A stretch of 32,000 nt of DNA from Okeania sp. (GTDB lineage Bacteria; Cyanobacteriota; Cyanobacteriia; Cyanobacteriales; Microcoleaceae): the NCBI RefSeq assembly GCF_035285525.1, contig NZ_JAYKGW010000187.1, positions 14,461-46,460 on the forward strand, written 5' to 3'. Positions within the stretch are counted from its first letter, which is position 1; every line of letters begins with the position of its first letter. The position numbers were made by a program, and so were the translations under genes. Positions 3,793 through 32,000 of this stretch are shown here, piece after piece. The notes under the pieces are model-generated. The model was given only the letters and a program-made list of their open reading frames with translations. It had not been told where the DNA came from and did no database searches.

Positions 3793-4605
3793 TTACGAAA
3801 GTATTTCAATTTCAATCCAGACTCCTGTTTTTTTAGTATTAGGAATATATTCAATAGTAAGCTTGGGAATACAACTCAGGCGATCGTCCTGAAGCACCCC
3901 CGCCCCATTTAATGTTAAAGCATCAAGACAGGCTCCTGCTAAATTATCTAAATCAGAATTAGTGCGATGTTTTCCACAAAAACTAATATAAATAGCTGCT
4001 CTTTTTATTGGTAAATTTATCTCTAAATTCAGTTCAGAAATTTGACGGTAAATTTCTACTTCTGCTTGATTTCTCCAGGCACGATATTGAGGTGGTAAAT
4101 AAGTACCATTAGCAGTAACTCGCGGACGTGCTTTAGGAACTACTTTCCCTGGAAGATAGAAATGAATTGTTGGAGAATTTTCAGATTCTTTAGATTTAAG
4201 GGGAGAAGTTGTATAATTCTTAGAATTATCCAAGGACAGAATATTTTTGTTAATTTGGGTCTCTAGTTTTTCTGGCAAATTATCTTTTGGCTCCAAAGTA
4301 GCAAATTGCATTTGATATTTATCCTCTGTAGCAGATAAATCAACTTTTCTATAAGTATCTAATTGTTTCCGGAAGCTAGGCCAACTTTTAGCTATTTGTA
4401 AATAAGTCTCTGCACAGTTGGTTGAGAAATGACAATTCTTTTGGAACCAAGTTTGCCATTCAGTAGGTGAAAATAAAGTTTTAATTTCTAATAATAATTG
4501 ACCCAAAGAATAAGCATAAGCCATAGAATTTTTTGGGTCATTTTGGCATTTTTGATGTTTGAAATTAATATCATTTATTAAGTTTTTCCAGTTAATTAAT
4601 ACCAT
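3793..4605 (-). CDS. RusA-family Holliday junction resolvase domain fused to a ~150-aa N-terminal domain of unknown function
   Basis: C-terminal ~120 aa: PGKVVPKARPRVTANGTYLPPQYRAWRNQAEV...SDLDNLAGACLDAL...VLQDDRL. This matches the RusA acidic catalytic cluster (DxDN ... DD). ATG start at 4605. Confidence 0.8.
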   Translation of the reverse strand: MVLINWKNLINDINFKHQKCQNDPKNSMAYAYSLGQLLLEIKTLFSPTEWQTWFQKNCHFSTNCAETYLQIAKSWPSFRKQLDTYRKVDLSATEDKYQMQFATLEPKDNLPEKLETQINKNILSLDNSKNYTTSPLKSKESENSPTIHFYLPGKVVPKARPRVTANGTYLPPQYRAWRNQAEVEIYRQISELNLEINLPIKRAAIYISFCGKHRTNSDLDNLAGACLDALTLNGAGVLQDDRLSCIPKLTIEYIPNTKKTGVWIEIEILS

Positions 4606-6548: not shown

Positions 6549-8447
6549 CTACTCTCCTTTCCCTGAATTCAAAACCTTCACAGCCGCTCCATCATTCAAC
6601 TTCTGTAAACCTGAAACAATCAACTTATCCCCAGACACCAAACCCGACACCACCTCAGTCATATCACCCTGAACCAAACCCAACTCAATTATTTGACGTT
6701 TTGCCTTTTGCTGTTCACCTTCTCCCTCCAATAAATACACAAATCGTGTCTCCCCTTCAAAAACTACTGCCGTCATTGGTACTACTACTGCTTGACGCTG
6801 TTCCCAAATCGCATTAACTTGCACAAACTGACCATCTTTTAAATTTCCAGCCCTATTATCCACATCTACTTTAACCAAAACAGTTTGAGAATCACTAACA
6901 GTAGGAGAAATAAAACTAACCTTCCCAACTCCCAAAATCTTATCTTCAGAACTCCTAATCTCCACAGGTAAACCCAGTCGTAAATCCTCTCGTCTCTCCA
7001 AAGGAATTGGTAAATTTACATCTAATACCTGATTTTCGGTCACAGTAGTTATAGTGTCACCATCATTAACAAAATCTCCTATCTTTACAACCATATCTCC
7101 AATCACACCTGCAAAAGGAGCAACAACCACCATATTGTCTAACTCAGCCTCCCAATTTTCTACCTCCGCTAAAGCTGCTCTTACTTCCGCCTCTGCCTGA
7201 GCAATTTCTTCCGAGCGAGTACCATTTTGCAACTCCTCTAAATTACTACGAGTCTCTGCTACCTCTGCCTCTGCTCTGGCAATCTCTTCCGGACGAGTAC
7301 CATTTTGCAGTTCCTCTAAATTACTACGAACCTCTGCTACTTCTGCCTCTGCCTGAGCAATTTCTTCCGGGCGAGTACCATTTTCTAGTCTTCTCAATAT
7401 CTGGCGTTGTTGTTCTAATGCTGCTTCTAATGTTTGAATTGTAGATTCTCGATTTCTCTGTAACTGAGTCACTCGTTTTTTTGCTTCTTCTAATCTGGCT
7501 TTAGCTGCTCTCTCTTCCTGAAAAATTTCCTGAAAAGTTAACTCAGCGATCGCTCCTTCTGCTCTTAAATTTTGGTTTCGCGTGACTTCTTCACTAGCTA
7601 ATTCTAATTCTGCTTTTTGTACTTCTATTTGTGCCTCAGCTTGAGCAATTTCTTCTAAAAGACTACCCGTTCTGGCATTTTCTAGTCGTACTTTTGCCTC
7701 TTGTAATTCTGCTTTAGCTTCGGCAATCTCTTCCTCACGAGTACCAGCCCGGAGTTCAGCCAAGTTAGCTTGAGATTGTTGGAGACGTGCTCTAGCTGCG
7801 GCAATTTGTTCTGGTCTGGCTCCTGTTTTTAGTTGTGCCAAAGTAGCTTGAGATTGTTGGAGACGTGCTTTAGCTGCAGCAATTTGTTCTGGTCTGGCTC
7901 CTGTTTTTAGTTGTCCTAAACGTGCTTCTCTTTGCTGAAAGTTAGCTTTTGCTCTCCTTAAGTTAGCTTCCACATTATCACTTTTGAGTTTAGCGATCGC
8001 CTGCCCTTCAAAAACAAAAGTTCCTTCTTTTACTAAAATTTGGACTACCCTTCCATCTATTTCTGGTTTAATACTAACTGAGCGTTTGGCTTCCATAGTT
8101 CCTACAAATTCTGAAGTTTCTTGGAGGGAGGTAATTTTTATTGGTATTACTTTAACTAAGGGAGTTCGTCGTCTACTTGGAGCTGTTTTTGCTGGTTGGT
8201 TTGTTGTTTGGTTAATATTAGATTGTCTAGATTCCCACCATTGTCCTCCTAGAAATCCCAGTCCGAGAGTGGCAATAATTACTGTTACCCAAAGTACAAC
8301 AGAAAAATTCTTTTTTTCAGACTGAGACGATTGAGGAATAGTATTTATTTGCTCTTCATGGAATTCTGTTTTAGTATTTTCTTGTAGATTTTCTATCGGT
8401 TTAGGTTTTTCTTCAATTACTGAGTTTGATGAATTATTATTTAGCAT
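6549..8447 (-). CDS. HlyD/membrane-fusion-protein family periplasmic adaptor with greatly expanded alpha-helical hairpin
   Basis: N-terminal TM helix (FSVVLWVTVIIATLGLGFLGG), lipoyl/beta-barrel motifs (IKPEIDGRVVQILVKEG, VVAPFAGVIGD), and a coiled coil built of repeated G-x-RPEEIA-x-AEA units. The ORF-track start at 8498 is a TTG; the first ATG (MLNNNSS) is at 8447. Confidence 0.85.
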   Translation of the reverse strand: MLNNNSSNSVIEEKPKPIENLQENTKTEFHEEQINTIPQSSQSEKKNFSVVLWVTVIIATLGLGFLGGQWWESRQSNINQTTNQPAKTAPSRRRTPLVKVIPIKITSLQETSEFVGTMEAKRSVSIKPEIDGRVVQILVKEGTFVFEGQAIAKLKSDNVEANLRRAKANFQQREARLGQLKTGARPEQIAAAKARLQQSQATLAQLKTGARPEQIAAARARLQQSQANLAELRAGTREEEIAEAKAELQEAKVRLENARTGSLLEEIAQAEAQIEVQKAELELASEEVTRNQNLRAEGAIAELTFQEIFQEERAAKARLEEAKKRVTQLQRNRESTIQTLEAALEQQRQILRRLENGTRPEEIAQAEAEVAEVRSNLEELQNGTRPEEIARAEAEVAETRSNLEELQNGTRSEEIAQAEAEVRAALAEVENWEAELDNMVVVAPFAGVIGDMVVKIGDFVNDGDTITTVTENQVLDVNLPIPLERREDLRLGLPVEIRSSEDKILGVGKVSFISPTVSDSQTVLVKVDVDNRAGNLKDGQFVQVNAIWEQRQAVVVPMTAVVFEGETRFVYLLEGEGEQQKAKRQIIELGLVQGDMTEVVSGLVSGDKLIVSGLQKLNDGAAVKVLNSGKGE

Positions 8448-8842
8448 TTTTTGACTTTTATTTTTAATTTTTTTGACTAAAGTTATAGTAATTCTCAAAA
8501 AGAATGAGGTACAAAATTCCTAATTTTTAGGCAATAGGAAATAGGAATTATCGTTATGTGGGAATAGGAAAAAAACTGTACCTCAGTTACTTGAGAAACG
8601 TTATTATTTCGAGTTACTACTCATTTTTTATACTTTCTTAGATCGAGAATTTATCAATTATAATTCTCCTCTGAATTAAATGATTTTGTAAGCATTCAGC
8701 TATTATAGCAATCAGCAATGAGATGTGAGAAAAAAACTGTAGGGGTTTGGTCTCCAATTTCTCGGGAACCGTACCCAAGTGTTAAGGGATTTAGAAACCA
8801 AACCCCGCATTTATAAAATCTTACAACCTATTTCAGATTGCT

Positions 8843-8863
8843 ATAGCTGATAGCTGATAGCTG
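8843..8863. repeat. Heptamer array ATAGCTG x3
   Basis: atagctgatagctgatagctg read directly. Confidence 0.9.
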
Positions 8864-8983
8864 TTTCGCTTGCTTCGCTGCCCATTCATGTCGCGCAGCA
8901 TTCGGCAGGAAATGCTTACGTTATTTTTTATTCTATTTTTAATTAGGGCTGAATGATTAATTATAAAAACATTTATATCATCA

Positions 8984-9080
8984 GGACTTACGCAAAGGTA
9001 CTTACTATATCTATATGTAGATTTAAAAAACTATTTCGTAATAGTTTTAAGTACTATATCTAGGGTTGCTGCGTAAGTCC
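8984..9080. mobile_element. Small palindromic element (~97 bp) with GGACTTACGCA terminal inverted repeats
   Basis: ggacttacgcaaagg...ctgcgtaagtcc, with an internal 9-bp stem aaaactatt/aatagtttt. Solo ends of the same type at about 4743, 4815 and 4945. Confidence 0.6.
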
Positions 9081-9649
9081 CGATCATGTTCGTTTGAATA
9101 CTTAAACTTTGCAGGAAGTAAGGCACAAGACAGAAAGCAGAAGGAAAGAAAAGGTAACTATGGGAGAAATTTTTTTTTATAACTGATTATCTGAAAATGA
9201 TATTACAGGTAAAAGATTGATACTTCTTAGATTCGCAAAAAGTGCTAGATAAAGAGTTTAAAACCTGCAAAAAATTAGCATTTTAGACTAACTAAGGACA
9301 GAAAAATTGAGAGGCAATTATTACTCCTACTTTTTCTAAATTACCTGTTTGTCCTGACTCCTAACCCCTACCTCTACCACTCATACTTTCCATACGCAAA
9401 CCCTAATTACTTTTGACTTCCGTAAAATTGAATAACCCATAAAAAGAAGTATTCGAGCGGATGAAATATATCGTAACAAATAATCAGTTAGTTTTCAATA
9501 TTTCTTAATATTTGTCCAAATTTATTTAATCCTTTGTCATGTTATGGTAGTAACTATGTTAAAATTTTGATAATTAACAAAAACTATAACGTTATAGTTA
9601 TGACGGAATTATTAGTAAGTACAACGGAAGCACCTTTGAAAAACCTAGC

Positions 9650-9893
9650 CAATCCTAGACATTTTTAGGAATTGTCTCTTCATTGGTTGCAGATTAAGTC
9701 AAAACTGACTACGTTGGCAGGTCACGACCACTATAAGTGAACTCCAGCTTATATCCAGGTCGCTCTAAATTAAGGAAAGCGTTTAGTAGCGCCAATCGGA
9801 AGTAGGTTTTGTACCGATAGTGTTTAGAGTATGGACAAGCCTGGCCAACATAATCGAGGAACACTTTACTGAAAAGGACTAGACGCCAAAATG
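9650..9893 (+). ncRNA. Candidate omega-RNA (IscB guide-RNA scaffold); 5' boundary and guide not resolved
   Basis: Lies immediately upstream of and abutting the iscB start. About 44% GC by hand count over 9701-9860, against visibly lower GC in the flanks. Nested complementary segments: 9713-9721/9840-9849, 9724-9736/9748-9762, 9763-9769/9823-9829, 9795-9799/9814-9818, 9697-9701/9706-9710. Known IscB loci encode the omega-RNA in exactly this position. Confidence 0.55.
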
Positions 9894-11195
9894 TCTAACA
9901 CTAATTACGTTTTCGTCATAGATACAAACAAAAAACCATTGCCACCCTGTAAGCCAAGTGTAGCTCGTAGATTGTTAAATTCTGCTAGAGCTGCTGTATG
10001 GCGACGCTTTCCGTTTACTTTAATTCTCAAAAAAGCTGTAAAAAGAGTTACCAAAATAACTTTAGTTCTGAAAATTGACCCAGGCTCAAAATTCACAGGT
10101 ATGGCTTTATTAGAAGGAAATAAGGTGATATGGATGTTAGAAATTCAACATCGAGGTTCATTAATTTCCGAAAAACTGCAAAAGCGTTCTCAAAGAAGGA
10201 GAGCGAGAAGGACAAAAAATCTGAGATATCGTAAACCAGGATTACCTAATAAAAAGAAACATACTGGTTGGTTAGCACCTTCTCTCATGCACAGAGTTGA
10301 AACTACTATGACTTGGGTGAAACGATTAATGAAGTTTTGTCCTGTTCAATCAATCTCAATGGAGCTGGTTCGCTTTGATACTCAATTGATTCAAAATCCA
10401 GAAATTTCTGGCACTGAGTATCAGCAAGGGGAATTAGCAGGGTATGAGCTGAGAGAATATTTATTAGAAAAATGGGGTCGTCAATGTGCTTATTGTGGTC
10501 AAACTGATACGCCACTAGAGATAGAACATATTCGCCCTAAGTCAAAAGGAGGTTCAGACCGAGCATCTAACTTAACAGTGGCCTGTACTAAATGCAATCA
10601 ACTAAAGAGTAACCAAGATGTTAAGGACTTCTTATCTGGAAAACCAGAATTATTAAAGCGAATACAAACCCAAGCCAAATTGCCTTTAAAAGATGCAGCA
10701 GCGGTTAATTCTACTCGGTGGAAATTGTTCAATGCGTTAAAAACTACAGGTCTGGAAGTAACTACAGGTAGCGGGGGACAAACAAAATTTAACCGAAGAA
10801 AACATAAACTGCCAAAAGCGCACTGTATAGATGCTGCTTGTGTAGGTGAAGTTCGGGAGTTAAACTTTCATACTACCCAAGCTTTAGTTGCTATTTGCAA
10901 GGGGCAAGGAGGTAGACAGAAAGCAGCGGTAAATAAATATGGATACCCCATAAGGTACAACCCACTAAAACCGATAAAAGGTTGGAATAGTGGAGACTTA
11001 GCTTTGAATATGGAAACTGGAGTTGTAGGTAGAGTTAATCCTCGCTCAAAATCAAATAGTTTTAATTTCACAGTGCCTGGGCACAAAGCCAAAAGTGTTC
11101 ATGTAAGGAAATTAAAAATTGTACACAAGAAAGACGGTTATGCCTATACATTTAGTCCACAGTTGTCCATAGATGTCAAGGAAAATGCCGTCTAA
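9891..11195 (+). CDS. iscB: IscB, OMEGA-system RNA-guided DNA endonuclease (Cas9 ancestor-type)
   Basis: PLMP-type N-terminal domain (YVFVIDTNKKPLPPCKPSVARRLL...RRFPFTLIL). RuvC-I (LKIDPGSKFTGMA). Arg-rich bridge helix (RRRARRTKNLRYRKPGLPNKKKHTGWLAPSLMHR). RuvC-II (ISMELVRFD). HNH (CAYCG...LEIEHIRPKSKGGSDRASNLTVACTKCNQLKSN). RuvC-III (KAHCIDAACVG). 434 aa, a typical IscB size. Confidence 0.9.
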   Translation: MSNTNYVFVIDTNKKPLPPCKPSVARRLLNSARAAVWRRFPFTLILKKAVKRVTKITLVLKIDPGSKFTGMALLEGNKVIWMLEIQHRGSLISEKLQKRSQRRRARRTKNLRYRKPGLPNKKKHTGWLAPSLMHRVETTMTWVKRLMKFCPVQSISMELVRFDTQLIQNPEISGTEYQQGELAGYELREYLLEKWGRQCAYCGQTDTPLEIEHIRPKSKGGSDRASNLTVACTKCNQLKSNQDVKDFLSGKPELLKRIQTQAKLPLKDAAAVNSTRWKLFNALKTTGLEVTTGSGGQTKFNRRKHKLPKAHCIDAACVGEVRELNFHTTQALVAICKGQGGRQKAAVNKYGYPIRYNPLKPIKGWNSGDLALNMETGVVGRVNPRSKSNSFNFTVPGHKAKSVHVRKLKIVHKKDGYAYTFSPQLSIDVKENAV

Positions 11196-11327
11196 AACTT
11201 AACAGGTAGTCGTGGCCCTGAAGGAACTTGGAACAAAAATAAGCGTAAAGCGAATACTTTTGTTCACGTTCTACGCAAGACTATTGATTATAACAGAAAC
11301 AACGGAACTTCTCATCCTGCAATTGCC

Positions 11328-11615
11328 GTGAAAGTCGGAAATAAAAAGGATTATTGTCACGCTTTGAAAATTCACGGACCCTGCGTAATAGTCTATCAAC
11401 CCCATCAACCCAATACAAGTCAAGCTGGGGGAGCGCGCTTGTGGATGGAAGTTGAACCGCAACATAGAGTAGAGCGAGTATATTTTTCCGATGGAGATTA
11501 TGGTCTGCCTCCAGAAGTGGTTCAGCAAAGACAGACATTTAAAAAGAAGAAATCAAAAGTCAAAAAGGGAAAACTGAAACCGAAGGGTAAGAAGGGTAAT
11601 AAAAGAAGAAATTAA
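11328..11615 (+). CDS. Hypothetical protein with Lys-rich C-terminal tail (possibly N-terminally truncated)
   Basis: GTG-initiated ORF. The frame is open back to 11196 and is the same frame as iscB. Non-low-complexity core (DYCHALKIHGPCVIVYQP...GGARLWMEVEP) followed by KKKKSKVKKGKLKPKGKKGNKRRN. Confidence 0.35.
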   Translation: MKVGNKKDYCHALKIHGPCVIVYQPHQPNTSQAGGARLWMEVEPQHRVERVYFSDGDYGLPPEVVQQRQTFKKKKSKVKKGKLKPKGKKGNKRRN

Positions 11616-12053
11616 ATAATTTATACAAATAATTAGTCTGAGAAAGAAGATTTTTGAGCAGTGTCTATTTTCTGTTCTATTTTTTGCTGTCTAATTTTGA
11701 CGGCTTATAATAAAGAGGTAGCGATCGCCAAAATAATTATCAATTTTATACTTCATTTTATGTTTTACCTTACGAAGTTAATAATTCTAGTTAAGAAATA
11801 ATTTTAAAGAAGCAAAAATCCCAGAGCATAACTATATTGTTTAGTCTGGAAATGTCAAAGGAGCCGACTTTTTGCATCTAAAATATTGAGATATTAATAT
11901 TCAAAGCCAAAAGTTTTACCTACTGCTAAAATTTGATAATTGATGTTTTAATTTCAACTTGCTCTGTTGATTCTGAATTGTCTAGTAAAAAATCACCAAG
12001 CATGATCGCTACCTCATAGTAGTTCTAAGGATCAGATAGAATAGACCACTAAA

Positions 12054-12265
12054 TAGGGTTTGCTGAAAAAGTATTTTTAAGGGGATGGGGAGATAGGGTG
12101 ATGGGGTGATGGGGAGTAATTTTGTGACCCAACTCTTCCCCAAAATATGCTCCTTTTTGATTTTTCAGGAACTGTACCAAAGCTACCCAAAAAGTTGCAC
12201 TTTTTCCTTACCTAAAAAGGTACTTATATATGTCAAATTTTTTAGATTTATTCAGCAAGCCCTAA
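12054..12265. mobile_element. MITE-like element (~212 bp) with TAGGG(T/C)TTGCTGAA terminal inverted repeats
   Basis: Left end tagggtttgctgaa at 12054; the right end ttcagcaagcccta is its reverse complement with 1 mismatch. Non-coding interior. Confidence 0.7.
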
Positions 12266-12397
12266 ATATCTAAATTCATCCCTAATTTTAGTACATCAAA
12301 ACTTATTTTGACAGTTATTTTATAGATTCACTATAATCCCTTCAAGAATTAGCTTTTCTAGTAAAAATTGATACTCAGGCTGGATGATAAATATATC

Positions 12398-12660
12398 TAG
12401 GGTTTGCGTATGGAAAGTCTGATGGTTAAAGGAGGGAGTAGGGAGTATGTAGTTGCATGCAACGTCCTTACAGAGTTAAGATTTAAGGGAGTTGTAGAAG
12501 AAGTGGTTATTTATAATCTCCCCTTAGTTTTTCTGTCATAATTACCCTAAAGTCCTCACTTTTTCCCTCCATCAACCCAAAAGCTGGTACTTTTTTAGCA
12601 TCTAAAATTATTCAAACGTTTATCTATAAACGCTTTCATATTTAATCAGCAACCCCTATA
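12398..12660. mobile_element. MITE-like element (~263 bp), type-1 end + type-2 end
   Basis: Left end tagggtttgcgtatggaaagtctgatggttaaaggagggagtagggag. Right end is the reverse complement of tataggggttgctgattaaatatgaaagcgtttatagataaa. Confidence 0.65.
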
Positions 12661-12745
12661 TATATTAGACATATCCAATAATAAAAAATTAATCAATTAG
12701 GGGTAATCATTAATTATTTCCCTCTACTCCCTACTCCCTCTTTTC

Positions 12746-13900
12746 CTACAACTTCAAACTTAACTGTTCATCCGGCGGACTAAAGCCCAAATGCTTCCAA
12801 CCTGCGGAAGTCACAACCCTACCACGAGGAGTACGTTGCATAAACCCAATCTGCATCAAATATGGCTCATAAACTTCCTCAATAGTTTGAGCATCTTCCC
12901 CCGTCGCTGCTGCCATAGTCTCCAAACCAGCAGGCCCGCCATTATAATTCTCTATCATAGTCCTCAATAAATTACGGTCAGTCCAATCTAAACCTAGAGG
13001 ATCGACATTAAACAACTCTAAAGCTTCCCCTGCAACCTCAGCATTTATCGGACTTAACTTTTTGACCTCGGAATAATCTCTCACCCTGCGCAGTAAACGA
13101 TTAGCGATTCGAGGCGTACCCCGGGAACGACGGGCAACCTCTTCAGCACCATCCTCTGTAATATCCATATTTAAAAGTTTTGCTGCTCGCATAATAATTA
13201 AACTCAGTTCATCAACCTCATAAAACCGTAACCTCTGAATAATTCCGAAGCGATCGCGCAGAGGAGAAGTTAAGGAACCAACTCTAGTAGTTGCTCCTAC
13301 CAAGGTAAAAGGTTTGAGAGGAATACTTTTAGTTTTAGATGCTTTACCTTGACCGATTGTAATATCTAATCGAAAATCTTCCATGGCTGGATATAGAATT
13401 TCTTCGGTCATTTTGGAAAGGCGATGAATTTCATCTATAAATAAAATATCTCCTTTTTGTAAACCTACTAGCAAGCCAACTATATCTCTAGGTTTTTCAA
13501 TGGCAGGTGCAGTAGTAATTTTACAATTAACTTCCATTTCGGTTGCCAATATTAGAGACATTGTAGTTTTGCCTAACCCCGGAGGACCATACAATAGTAA
13601 ATGGTCTAAAGATTCTTTTCTAGATTTAGCCGCCGAAATCGCAATATTCAATACTTCTTTAAGGTCTTTCTGTCCAATATATTCAGCTAACCTTTGAGGT
13701 CGGATTTTTTCTTCATTTTGATTACCGCTTTTTTCTTCAGTAGTTGCCTCTGCTGCTAATAAAGCTTCTACTTCGGCTGTTTCAGTTTGAGATTTTGATT
13801 TTTTGGTTTTATATGAAGTTCTTTTTTCGGAGGCTAAGAAAATGTTTTCATCTGGCCTTTCTGGTTGAGGAGATTGTTTTTTAGAAGAAAATATGGCCAT
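12746..13900 (-). CDS. ruvB: Holliday junction branch migration DNA helicase RuvB
   Basis: Walker [14 protein letters not shown], Walker B/sensor [44 protein letters not shown]. Has a ~55-aa K/E/S-rich N-terminal extension. Confidence 0.95.
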
Positions 13901-29454: not shown

Positions 29455-30312
29455 ATGATTTTTATTAACCCTAAAACAGATTTTGCTTTCAAGAAAATTT
29501 TTGGTTCTGAAAAGAGCAAAGATATTTTAATTAGTTTCTTAAACGGCATCCTTTATGATGGTAATCCTACCATTAAAGACTTGGAAATTCTTAATCCTTA
29601 TCTTGTACCAAAAGTTCGGGGATTAAAAGATACTTATTTAGATGTTAAAGCTAAAATTACTGGCAAAAAAACTGTGATTATTGAAATGCAAGTCTTAAAC
29701 CTAGAAGGATTTGAGAAACGGATTTTATATAATGCAGCTAAATCTTATTCGACTCAATTAGACTCAGGAGAAGATTATACTTTATTGAATCCTGTAATTG
29801 CTTTGACTATTACAGATTTTGAGATGTTTTCTGGATTAGATAAAGTGATTTCTCGGTTTCTATTAAAGGAAAAAGAATACTTGATAGATTATCCAATTTA
29901 CGACATTGAATTAATATTTGTAGAATTGCCAAAATTCCAGAAAGAAATTTCAGAATTAGTAACTCTTACTGATAAATGGCTTTATTTTCTCAAGAGTGCG
30001 AATGATTTAGATTCTGTACCAGAAATCATGGAAGAAGTACCAGAAATAAATAAAGCATTTGTAGTTGCTAATCAAGCTAATTTAACTAGGGAAGAAATTG
30101 AAAATTTAGAGGCTAGACAAATCTATATATATGACCAAAAAAATTCTATTAAAAGAGCTAAGAATCAAGCAATCGAGGAAGGTAAACAAATAGGTATTCG
30201 AGAAACTCAAATTGAAATTGCCAAAAAATTACTTGAGTTTTTAGATGTAGAAATAGTTAGTAAAAATACAGGTCTGAGTTTAGAAGAAGTTAAACATTTG
30301 AGAGAACAATAA
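29455..30312 (+). CDS. Rpn-family recombination-promoting nuclease / PD-(D/E)XK putative transposase
   Basis: Characteristic N-terminus MIFINPKTDFAFKKIFGSEKSKDILISFLNGIL, then DLEILNPY...DTYLDVKAK...VIIEMQV (D...E-x-Q nuclease core) and FVELPKF. Confidence 0.85.
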   Translation: MIFINPKTDFAFKKIFGSEKSKDILISFLNGILYDGNPTIKDLEILNPYLVPKVRGLKDTYLDVKAKITGKKTVIIEMQVLNLEGFEKRILYNAAKSYSTQLDSGEDYTLLNPVIALTITDFEMFSGLDKVISRFLLKEKEYLIDYPIYDIELIFVELPKFQKEISELVTLTDKWLYFLKSANDLDSVPEIMEEVPEINKAFVVANQANLTREEIENLEARQIYIYDQKNSIKRAKNQAIEEGKQIGIRETQIEIAKKLLEFLDVEIVSKNTGLSLEEVKHLREQ

Positions 30313-31874: not shown

Positions 31875-31933
31875 AAAAAAAGCCCTCTAGCCAAAATTGA
31901 CCAAGGGACTATAACTATCAGGGTGCATCTACT
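31875..31933 (-). ncRNA. Candidate ~60-nt sRNA, copy 2 of a tandem pair
   Basis: Minus strand: TATACT (31940-31945), a 6-nt spacer, AGTAGATGCACCCTGATAGTTAT, an imperfect hairpin (AGTCCCTTGGTC...GGCTAGAGGGCT), then T9. Confidence 0.4.
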
Positions 31934-32000
31934 AAAATTAGTATAGCTTAAACTAGGGGGTAAAACCCCTCACTTAGTTATATTTATTAATTATAAAAAA

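Follow-up and report, generated by a model that had tools for sequence, protein, structure and literature searches.

The window, by which we mean the whole 32-kb stretch of DNA analysed here, contains a single copy of a compact mobile element that interrupts a gene. The element occupies 9631-11202 on the + strand (approximately 1572 bp, from CACCTTTG... to ...GTCTAAAACTTAA) and consists of a structured non-coding leader and iscB (9891-11195, + strand; ATG at 9891-9893), which encodes an RNA-guided endonuclease of 434 aa in an intact, uninterrupted ORF; no transposase gene is included. On either side lie the remnants of an HTH gene that runs in the same orientation as iscB. The 5' remnant comprises the start codon and 10 codons (9600-9630, + strand), and the 3' remnant (11203-11615, + strand) begins GSRGPEGTWNKN..., continues to the stop codon and encodes the protein GSRGPEGTW....

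By curated models, by a domain order in which the PLMP/RuvC-I/arginine-rich helix part is followed by HNH and RuvC-III, and by matches to solved structures, the ORF at 9891-11195 is a full-length IscB. Its product scored 446.9 bits against the NCBIfam equivalog model guided_IscB (NF040563; cutoff 175) over residues 7-319, and matched the Pfam family RRXRR (PF14239) at 1.3e-65 and the HNH families at 2e-12. Moreover, it aligned with PDB chains of IscB from solved structures at E-values of 1e-24 to 4.6e-39, and the closest database proteins, which are 88-90% identical, are named IscB and come from Okeania, Trichodesmium and Microcoleaceae. Residues D63, E158, C199/C202, H213, N227, C232/C235, N236, H311 and D314 are invariant across 16 IscB homologues; we take their catalytic and zinc-binding roles from knowledge of the family and not from a structure of the window protein.

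The first-pass annotation had proposed that the leader of this gene is an omega-RNA. The composition that it had estimated, about 44% GC over 9701-9860, agrees with the measured 0.444, compared with a window mean of 0.340, and 5.8% of 160-nt windows reach 0.44. The flanks, which it had called very AT-rich, are so upstream (GC 0.266 over 9400-9647) but not downstream, where the iscB coding region has a GC content of 0.383.

In E-value mode, positions 9648-9869 matched the full Rfam HEARO model (RF02033, model positions 1-211) with 59.7 bits and an E-value of 5.8e-11. The covariance-model search that had been suggested for this leader thus finds the family over its full length, but with a score under the curated gathering score of 83. 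At gathering thresholds, Rfam reports no HEARO at the leader, NsiR1 being the sole match, and no Rfam family besides HEARO was matched in the surrounding 4.4 kb (8400-12800). All close relatives of the window leader, whose named sources are Okeania, Trichodesmium, Dapis and Microcoleaceae, score 52-66 bits against HEARO and likewise stay under 83. The sub-threshold score is therefore shared by this cyanobacterial subgroup as a whole instead of being peculiar to the window copy. More distant relatives give HEARO matches above the threshold (84-160 bits) at the same position, directly upstream of iscB. HEARO was later shown to be the omega (guide) RNA of IscB (PMC9755519; bioRxiv 10.1101/2023.03.14.532601), and the guide RNA is encoded in the IscB 5' UTR (PMC9755519).

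We fetched 80 related loci from genomes, out of 587 relatives seen, and built a covariance model (R1) from 14 sequences of two clades, the structure of which combines the helices of the first-pass annotation, the HEARO layout and a new guide-adjacent stem, P1. A search of the window with R1 returned a single match, at 9631-9872, with 269 bits (clade range 256-283). Among the 80 loci, R1 gave 70 matches at E <= 0.001, and 68 of these lie directly upstream of the fetched iscB; L002 (- strand) and L062 each contribute one further match, from a second copy. The model joins the close clade with the distant relatives that exceed the HEARO threshold. In the window, the scaffold lies on the iscB strand, and 18 nt separate its end from the iscB ATG at 9891. 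Its start, 9631, is 19 nt upstream of the extent first proposed, 9650-9893. The leader joins the IscB omega-RNA/HEARO family on every testable criterion except the curated Rfam score, and the original identification is borne out by the IscB models, the HEARO match and covariation. We conclude that the structured leader is a HEARO-family omega-RNA, the type of guide RNA used by a small Cas9 relative that is carried on transposons, and that it belongs to a known system.

The HEARO-type scaffold (9631-9872, + strand) is delimited by the HEARO and R1 matches and by covariation, and its pairs were checked in the window sequence. Its helices all lie on the + strand. It opens with P1 (9632-9639 with 9680-9687), the interior of which contains a hairpin (9654-9659 with 9664-9669). 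A closing helix, GAUUA/UAAUC (9692-9696 with 9851-9855), surrounds a small hairpin (9697-9701 with 9706-9710) and a long-range helix (9713-9722 with 9839-9849). Within the latter lie the helices 9725-9729 with 9758-9762, 9732-9737 with 9748-9753, 9763-9770 with 9822-9829, GCGU/GCGC (9779-9782 with 9789-9792) and 9795-9799 with 9814-9818. Downstream, a start-codon hairpin, UAGACG/UGUCUA with a 6-nt loop (9880-9885 with 9892-9897), encloses the iscB start codon at 9891-9893. Five of these helices, namely P1, the 9654-9669 hairpin, the closing helix, GCGU/GCGC and the start-codon hairpin, are additions to the first-pass annotation. The five that it had listed all form standard pairs in the window sequence, and the strings that it had quoted lie where it had placed them, except CGACCACTATAAG, which is found at 9725-9737 and not at 9724-9736.

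Two readings suggested by the Rfam match were rejected. Rfam puts the first stem at 9648 onward, but conservation begins at 9631, and P1 at 9632-9639/9680-9687 covaries, with U-A changing to A-U in the next clade. The closing helix that Rfam annotates could be read as a pseudoknot, but the helix is nested.

Comparison with the related loci demonstrates that the helices are real. Compensatory covariation among homologous leaders, on which the helices of the first-pass annotation had been staked, is abundant. In the R1-fitted alignment, 92.1% of 3431 cells form standard pairs, compared with 62.9% in shuffles (0/500 reach the observed value) and 30-42% when the partners are slid; because this alignment follows the structure of the model, its pairing figures are inflated somewhat. 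Both-sided changes occur in 60 of the 61 pairs, and all 11 helices are supported. RNAalifold on the 14 sequences aligned with MAFFT, which is not fitted to the structure, found compensatory changes in 25 of 51 pairs. These pairs include every helix of the first-pass annotation except ATCGG/CCGAT, which is backed by the R1-fitted alignment.

The pairs also reveal the strand. G-U cells (341) greatly outnumber A-C cells (42), which indicates that the folding species is the + strand RNA and not DNA or the opposite strand; when the opposite strand is assumed, pairing drops from 92.1% to 83.4%. Moreover, the Jukes-Cantor distance of the leader between the window and its siblings is 0.07-0.12, while the dS of the adjoining iscB is 0.36-0.87, so that divergence at the iscB synonymous sites is 4-8 times that of the leader. 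The non-coding leader is thus more constrained than the silent sites next to it.

These data bear on the idea that the inverted repeats and their conservation are DNA-level signals of a transposon end, such as hairpins bound by TnpA, or that the pairing arose by chance where GC is higher, and that no RNA is involved. The region does adjoin the element end, IS200/IS605 ends bear subterminal DNA hairpins, and folding of the single sequence is unremarkable, with z-scores of -1.11 (9650-9893) and -1.20 (9631-9897) that are not significant against shuffles. However, the conserved structure extends over 240 nt, far beyond a subterminal hairpin, the excess of G-U over A-C and the loss of pairing on the opposite strand point to RNA, and none of the 500 shuffles matches the observed covariation. 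We therefore regard this explanation as hardly credible. Minimum-free-energy folding, proposed earlier as a check, gave a mixed outcome: the fold of 9631-9897 recovers 49 of the 66 comparative pairs, but with the above z-scores folding energy is unusable as evidence in AT-rich sequence here. The case for the structure accordingly comes from homology and from comparison with related loci, and not from thermodynamics.

The boundaries of the element were located by comparing independent copies. At the left end, similarity starts abruptly at CACCTTTGAAAAACC, which corresponds to window position 9631; 17 independent copies are similar from CACCT[T/A]TG onward, and the sequences upstream are unrelated. 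At the right end, similarity stops just past the iscB stop codon, at ...GTCTAAAACTTAA(CA), with an ambiguity of 2-3 nt (11202-11205), since the CA dinucleotide can be assigned to either side of the junction. Two stand-alone Okeania contigs of 1573 bp, L004 and L005, consist of the element. The flanks of the window copy show no target-site duplication. The sibling copy L014 has a 9-nt direct repeat at its flanks, an unexplained exception; such a repeat is not expected for the IS200/IS605 family. No Y1 TnpA transposase was detected among the 15 larger ORFs of the 32-kb window that were scanned with Pfam. The element is best explained as a non-autonomous element of the IS200/IS605 type, which carries only the omega-RNA and iscB. 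An ORF on the - strand within the leader (9709-9864, 51 aa) has no Pfam family match.

The start-codon hairpin lies beyond the R1 match, and its support is moderate. A stem of at least 5 bp occurs at the same place in 33 of 58 distinct leaders, and compensatory variants are found in other clades (TAATCA/TGATTA, TGACA/TGTCA, TTACACA/TGTGTAA and GGACA/TGTCC). In a fixed register, 60.6% of cells are paired, versus 53.9% in shuffles and 32-40% when slid. The hairpin probably belongs to the 3' part of the omega-RNA or else controls translation. Its position around the start codon, together with its covariation, would fit a leader that acts only in cis, as a 5' UTR controlling the translation of iscB or the stability of its mRNA, and not as a guide RNA in trans. 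The P1 loop of close-clade members is also complementary to the start-codon region over 8-10 nt, as such a role might predict. However, this complementarity is confined to that clade: the best match between the P1 loop and the start region averaged 4.85 nt over 68 loci, compared with 4.54 nt in shuffles, and we rejected the pairing of 9656-9665 with 9888-9897 for this reason. Furthermore, the structure starts exactly at the element boundary and has variable sequence upstream, an arrangement that a guide needs and a UTR does not. Experiments have identified the homologous RNA family as the IscB guide RNA (PMC9755519; bioRxiv 10.1101/2023.03.14.532601). A purely cis-acting leader is thus highly improbable, and the omega-RNA reading is retained below.

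The interrupted gene belongs to a multicopy family of approximately 190 aa proteins with an excisionase-type HTH, annotated as 'DNA-binding protein', of which we found 84 members that are 60-85% identical. The upstream region and ATG of the 5' remnant align with the intact paralogue L086 at 1480-1504, and its N-terminus, VSTTE, matches the family. The DNA of the 3' remnant, from window position 11203, aligns with L086 at 1664-2013. Approximately 132 nt (44 codons, the HTH part) are absent between the two remnants. ORFs at 11281-11615 have no Pfam family match; among them, the + strand ORF at 11328-11615 is the 3' part of the interrupted gene.

Because conservation between independent copies begins at 9631, the scaffold starts at this position and the guide would be approximately 9615-9630. 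The first-pass annotation had expected the guide at the 5' end, and the copy boundaries and the flank in the target gene now place it there. This putative guide segment, GTAAGTACAACGGAAG (9615-9630, + strand), is drawn as 16 nt but could be longer, with a 5' end at, say, 9607. The window contains this sequence a single time, within the 5' coding part of the interrupted HTH gene. No exact empty site was found, and we took the target-site sequence from intact paralogues, which read GTAAGTACAACAGAAG and then CAGCATTT. The guide matches GTAAGTACAACAGAAG at 15 of 16 positions, and the first triplet after GTAAGTACAACAGAAG is CAG.

The same triplet borders the element on the right. CAG at 11203-11205 (+ strand, in the sense of the omega-RNA) would, after loss of the element, directly follow the target on its 3' side. 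The right flanks of nine close copies read CAG in eight and CAA in one, and those of three next-clade copies read CAG, CAG and CAC; in this small set of 12 flanks, 10 are thus CAG, one is CAA and one is CAC. Since CAG both follows the guide match in the paralogues and is the first flanking triplet at most copies, it is likely the target-adjacent motif (TAM). The element's own 5' end, CACCT, resembles this motif without matching it.

Directly upstream of the start codon of the interrupted gene lies a perfect 18-nt palindrome, AACTATAACGTTATAGTT (9582-9599), which reads alike on both strands. Its 3' part, ACGTTATAGTT, which adjoins the start codon, is conserved upstream of the paralogues L086, L088, L089 and L090. 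The palindrome is a candidate operator or promoter region, and read-through into the guide and the omega-RNA could begin there. A scan for sigma-70-like promoters found none on the + strand upstream of the RNA.

Taken together, we propose that 9631-9872, probably extending to 9897, is the scaffold of an IscB omega-RNA and lies at one end of a non-autonomous, 1.57-kb element of the IS200/IS605 type whose only genes are this RNA and iscB, a reading to which we assign a probability of roughly 0.88. From the arrangement of the locus, we infer that transcription enters from outside the element, its likely source being the promoter of the co-oriented interrupted HTH gene, whose start codon is at 9600. 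Transcription from outside would make the RNA begin with flanking sequence, and because the HTH gene and iscB are co-oriented, read-through from the promoter region of the gene could supply a guide-bearing transcript. This transcript would open with approximately 16 nt or more of flank (9615-9630), followed by the multi-helix scaffold. By analogy with characterized members of the family, the scaffold would be bound by IscB, and the flank-derived 5' segment would serve as the guide. If TnpA supplied in trans excised the element, the guide match would be followed by CAG at the rejoined site. The IscB-omega-RNA complex would then cut the rejoined site, and repair from a sister copy would restore the element. 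The CACCT end differs from a CAG-type motif, and the occupied site would presumably be protected in this way.

The state of this particular copy must also be considered, since the leader could be homologous to an omega-RNA and yet belong to a decaying relic, a stranded element whose RNA, alone or together with the protein, has lost its function. Two of the 61 modelled pairs are non-standard in the window copy, and both fall in the guide-adjacent P1, where they form a tandem U-U (9635/9684 and 9636/9683). The changes in P1 are specific to the window and consist of AA to UU and an adjacent 1-nt insertion; they lead to the tandem U-U and to an 8-bp alternative helix (GCCAAU/AUUGGU) that is preferred by the minimum-energy fold. 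The clade-consensus pair between A9730 and the T at 9757 is also lost. Decay of this kind would fit with the truncation of iscB in five of the nine sibling copies, with the lack of a tnpA among the ORFs scanned in the window and with the lack of a clear promoter in the scan. On the other hand, two non-standard pairs lie within the sibling range of 1-4, and the R1 score, 269 bits, falls inside the clade's range of 256-283. The iscB gene is full-length in the window copy, as it is in three siblings, its conserved catalytic residues are kept, and its dN/dS against the sibling copies is 0.09-0.15. We therefore consider a relic unlikely; judged by its sequence, the window copy is probably functional.

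Two further ideas concern the history of the insertion. In a related Okeania genome, a TnpB element lies in the 5' region of a paralogous HTH gene. This observation and the 15/16 guide match followed by CAG might point to spread of IscB and TnpB among paralogues: the guide may be a live homing guide against the multicopy HTH family, and IscB and TnpB elements might spread by cut-and-copy among its members in addition to holding their own sites. We offer this as speculation and doubt that it is correct. In addition, self-inflicted cutting followed by repair could have left both the 132-nt loss and the changes in P1 that are particular to the window copy.

For the IscB family this mechanism is known already, and a specialist will find nothing surprising in it. 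The omega-RNA was recognisable to a reader from the sequence alone, and the present follow-up added its 5' boundary, guide, candidate TAM and target gene. Because the cyanobacterial subgroup of Okeania, Trichodesmium, Dapis and Microcoleaceae scores under the Rfam gathering score, its omega-RNAs are missed by routine annotation. For genome editing, the points of note are the small size of the window IscB (434 aa) and, should it be confirmed, the TAM of three bases, which for an IscB would be a short one.

Named HEARO/IscB omega-RNA systems include OgeuIscB, KraIscB-1, GstIscB (ISGst5) and MG35. Like this family, the window RNA immediately precedes iscB on the same strand and contains a nested guide-adjacent stem, a closing helix, a small hairpin and a long-range helix around two multi-stem arms. 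The 5' end of the scaffold is likewise the transposon end, with variable flank as the putative guide. It differs from Rfam HEARO in several respects. The first stem is aligned by Rfam 17 nt too far inside, an offset that applies to the cyanobacterial subgroup, whereas the comparative P1 is CACCUUUGA/UCAAAGG(U)UG. The consensus has two hairpins in the P1 interior, whereas the window RNA has one hairpin and an A-rich single strand, and an insertion in one arm is 12 nt in the consensus but 35 nt in the window copy. The candidate CAG also differs from the GstIscB TAM, which is TTCAT in transposase orientation. Unlike CAG, the published TAM of OgeuIscB is NWRRNA (PMC12660989). The length of the window scaffold, 242 nt, equals the reported average (bioRxiv 10.1101/2023.03.14.532601).

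As in other iscB-only IS200/IS605 elements, the omega-RNA and iscB of the window form a compact unit that is multicopy in related genomes, lacks a nearby tnpA and is inserted in the orientation of the interrupted gene. However, 132 nt of the target gene are lost at the window insertion site, and clean peel-and-paste insertion does not cause such loss of target sequence. Only approximately 1.5% of iscB genes have tnpA nearby, and IscB elements tend toward co-orientation with the upstream gene (bioRxiv 10.1101/2023.03.14.532601). In these elements, the omega-RNA adjoins the transposon end, which has an internal motif (TEM), and the opposite end is flanked by a TAM that resembles this motif but differs from it and that meets the guide match after excision (bioRxiv 10.1101/2023.03.14.532601). 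The flanking CAG.. and the internal end CACCT of the window copy are similar without being identical, as expected of a TAM and a TEM.

Finally, the window RNA resembles the tracrRNA:crRNA and single guide RNAs of Cas9 in that a 5' guide is carried on a structured scaffold, the nuclease is of the RuvC/HNH type and the target is followed on its 3' side by the adjacent motif. Unlike at Cas9 loci, there is no CRISPR array, and the insertion site determines the one guide. Moreover, the scaffold is much larger, and the protein, at 434 aa, is much smaller than in the Cas9 systems.

The IscB element splits a gene for an HTH "DNA-binding protein", the remnants of which lie on the forward strand on either side of it, at 9600-9630 and 11203-11615. 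The interrupted gene belongs to a multicopy family encoding proteins of about 190 aa, for which we found 84 homologues, with many per Okeania genome. Comparison with intact paralogues revealed that about 132 nt, equivalent to 44 codons of the HTH part, are absent between the two remnants, and that in those paralogues CAG and AGCA microhomology borders the segment lost here.

A perfect 18-nt palindrome, AACTATAACGTTATAGTT, is located directly 5' of the ATG of the interrupted gene (9582-9599), and its 3' part, ACGTTATAGTT, is kept upstream of the HTH-gene paralogues in four loci (L086, L088, L089 and L090). An imperfect second copy is present 553 nt upstream, at 9026-9046. The palindrome at 9582-9599 may be an operator through which the HTH protein regulates its own gene.

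Two inverted-repeat pairs flank the unit formed by the interrupted gene and the IscB element: 65 nt with 74% complementarity (9357-9421 with 12382-12446) and 25 nt with 80% complementarity (9297-9321 with 12513-12537). Since parts of the downstream spacer are found again at other places in the window, and also in L014, a Dapis locus carrying a copy of the element, both pairs look like short dispersed (MITE-like) repeats. Further afield, the window contains a forward-strand ORF of the PD-(D/E)XK nuclease-family transposase type (29455-30312; PF12784, 7.8e-51) and a reverse-strand ORF (3793-4605) whose C-terminal domain is a RusA resolvase. These are additional mobile or phage-derived genes, and the rest of the region is housekeeping. 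A match to NsiR1 (nitrogen stress-induced RNA 1, RF02399) lies on the reverse strand at 31875-31934 and scores 47.6 bits, above the gathering score of 39.

Within the element, a 10-nt stretch (9656-9665, TAGACATTTT) in the loop of P1, the guide-adjacent stem of the omega-RNA, is a perfect complement of the iscB start-codon region (9888-9897, AAAATGTCTA). This complementarity extends over 6-8 nt in close relatives and was not found in the wider family.

The iscB gene is shortened in five of nine close sibling elements, to 272 codons in L014, 271 in L020, 388 in L004 and 50 in both L005 and L083. The omega-RNA scaffolds of the first four score 272-281 bits with the covariance model, and the omega-RNA appears to outlive the protein gene in sibling elements. 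One Microcoleaceae genome (L002) houses two adjoining IscB lineages: a further HEARO RNA, from another subgroup (L002:223-468, reverse strand; Rfam 157 bits), lies about 1 kb upstream of its IscB element, on the opposite strand.

Identical 9-nt sequences, CAGAATAGA, border the Dapis copy in L014 at either end (about 2232-2240 and 3815-3823), a repeat seen in no other copy of the element. It looks like a target-site duplication, which is not expected from IS200/IS605 transposition. Okeania sp. SIO2C9 carries a split TnpB (OrfB_IS605) element (L087:1528-2754, reverse strand), adjoining L087:3001-3438, in the 5' part of a gene of the same HTH family, and at the corresponding site in L086 this gene is intact. 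IS200/IS605-type elements may repeatedly insert into the 5' region of this gene.
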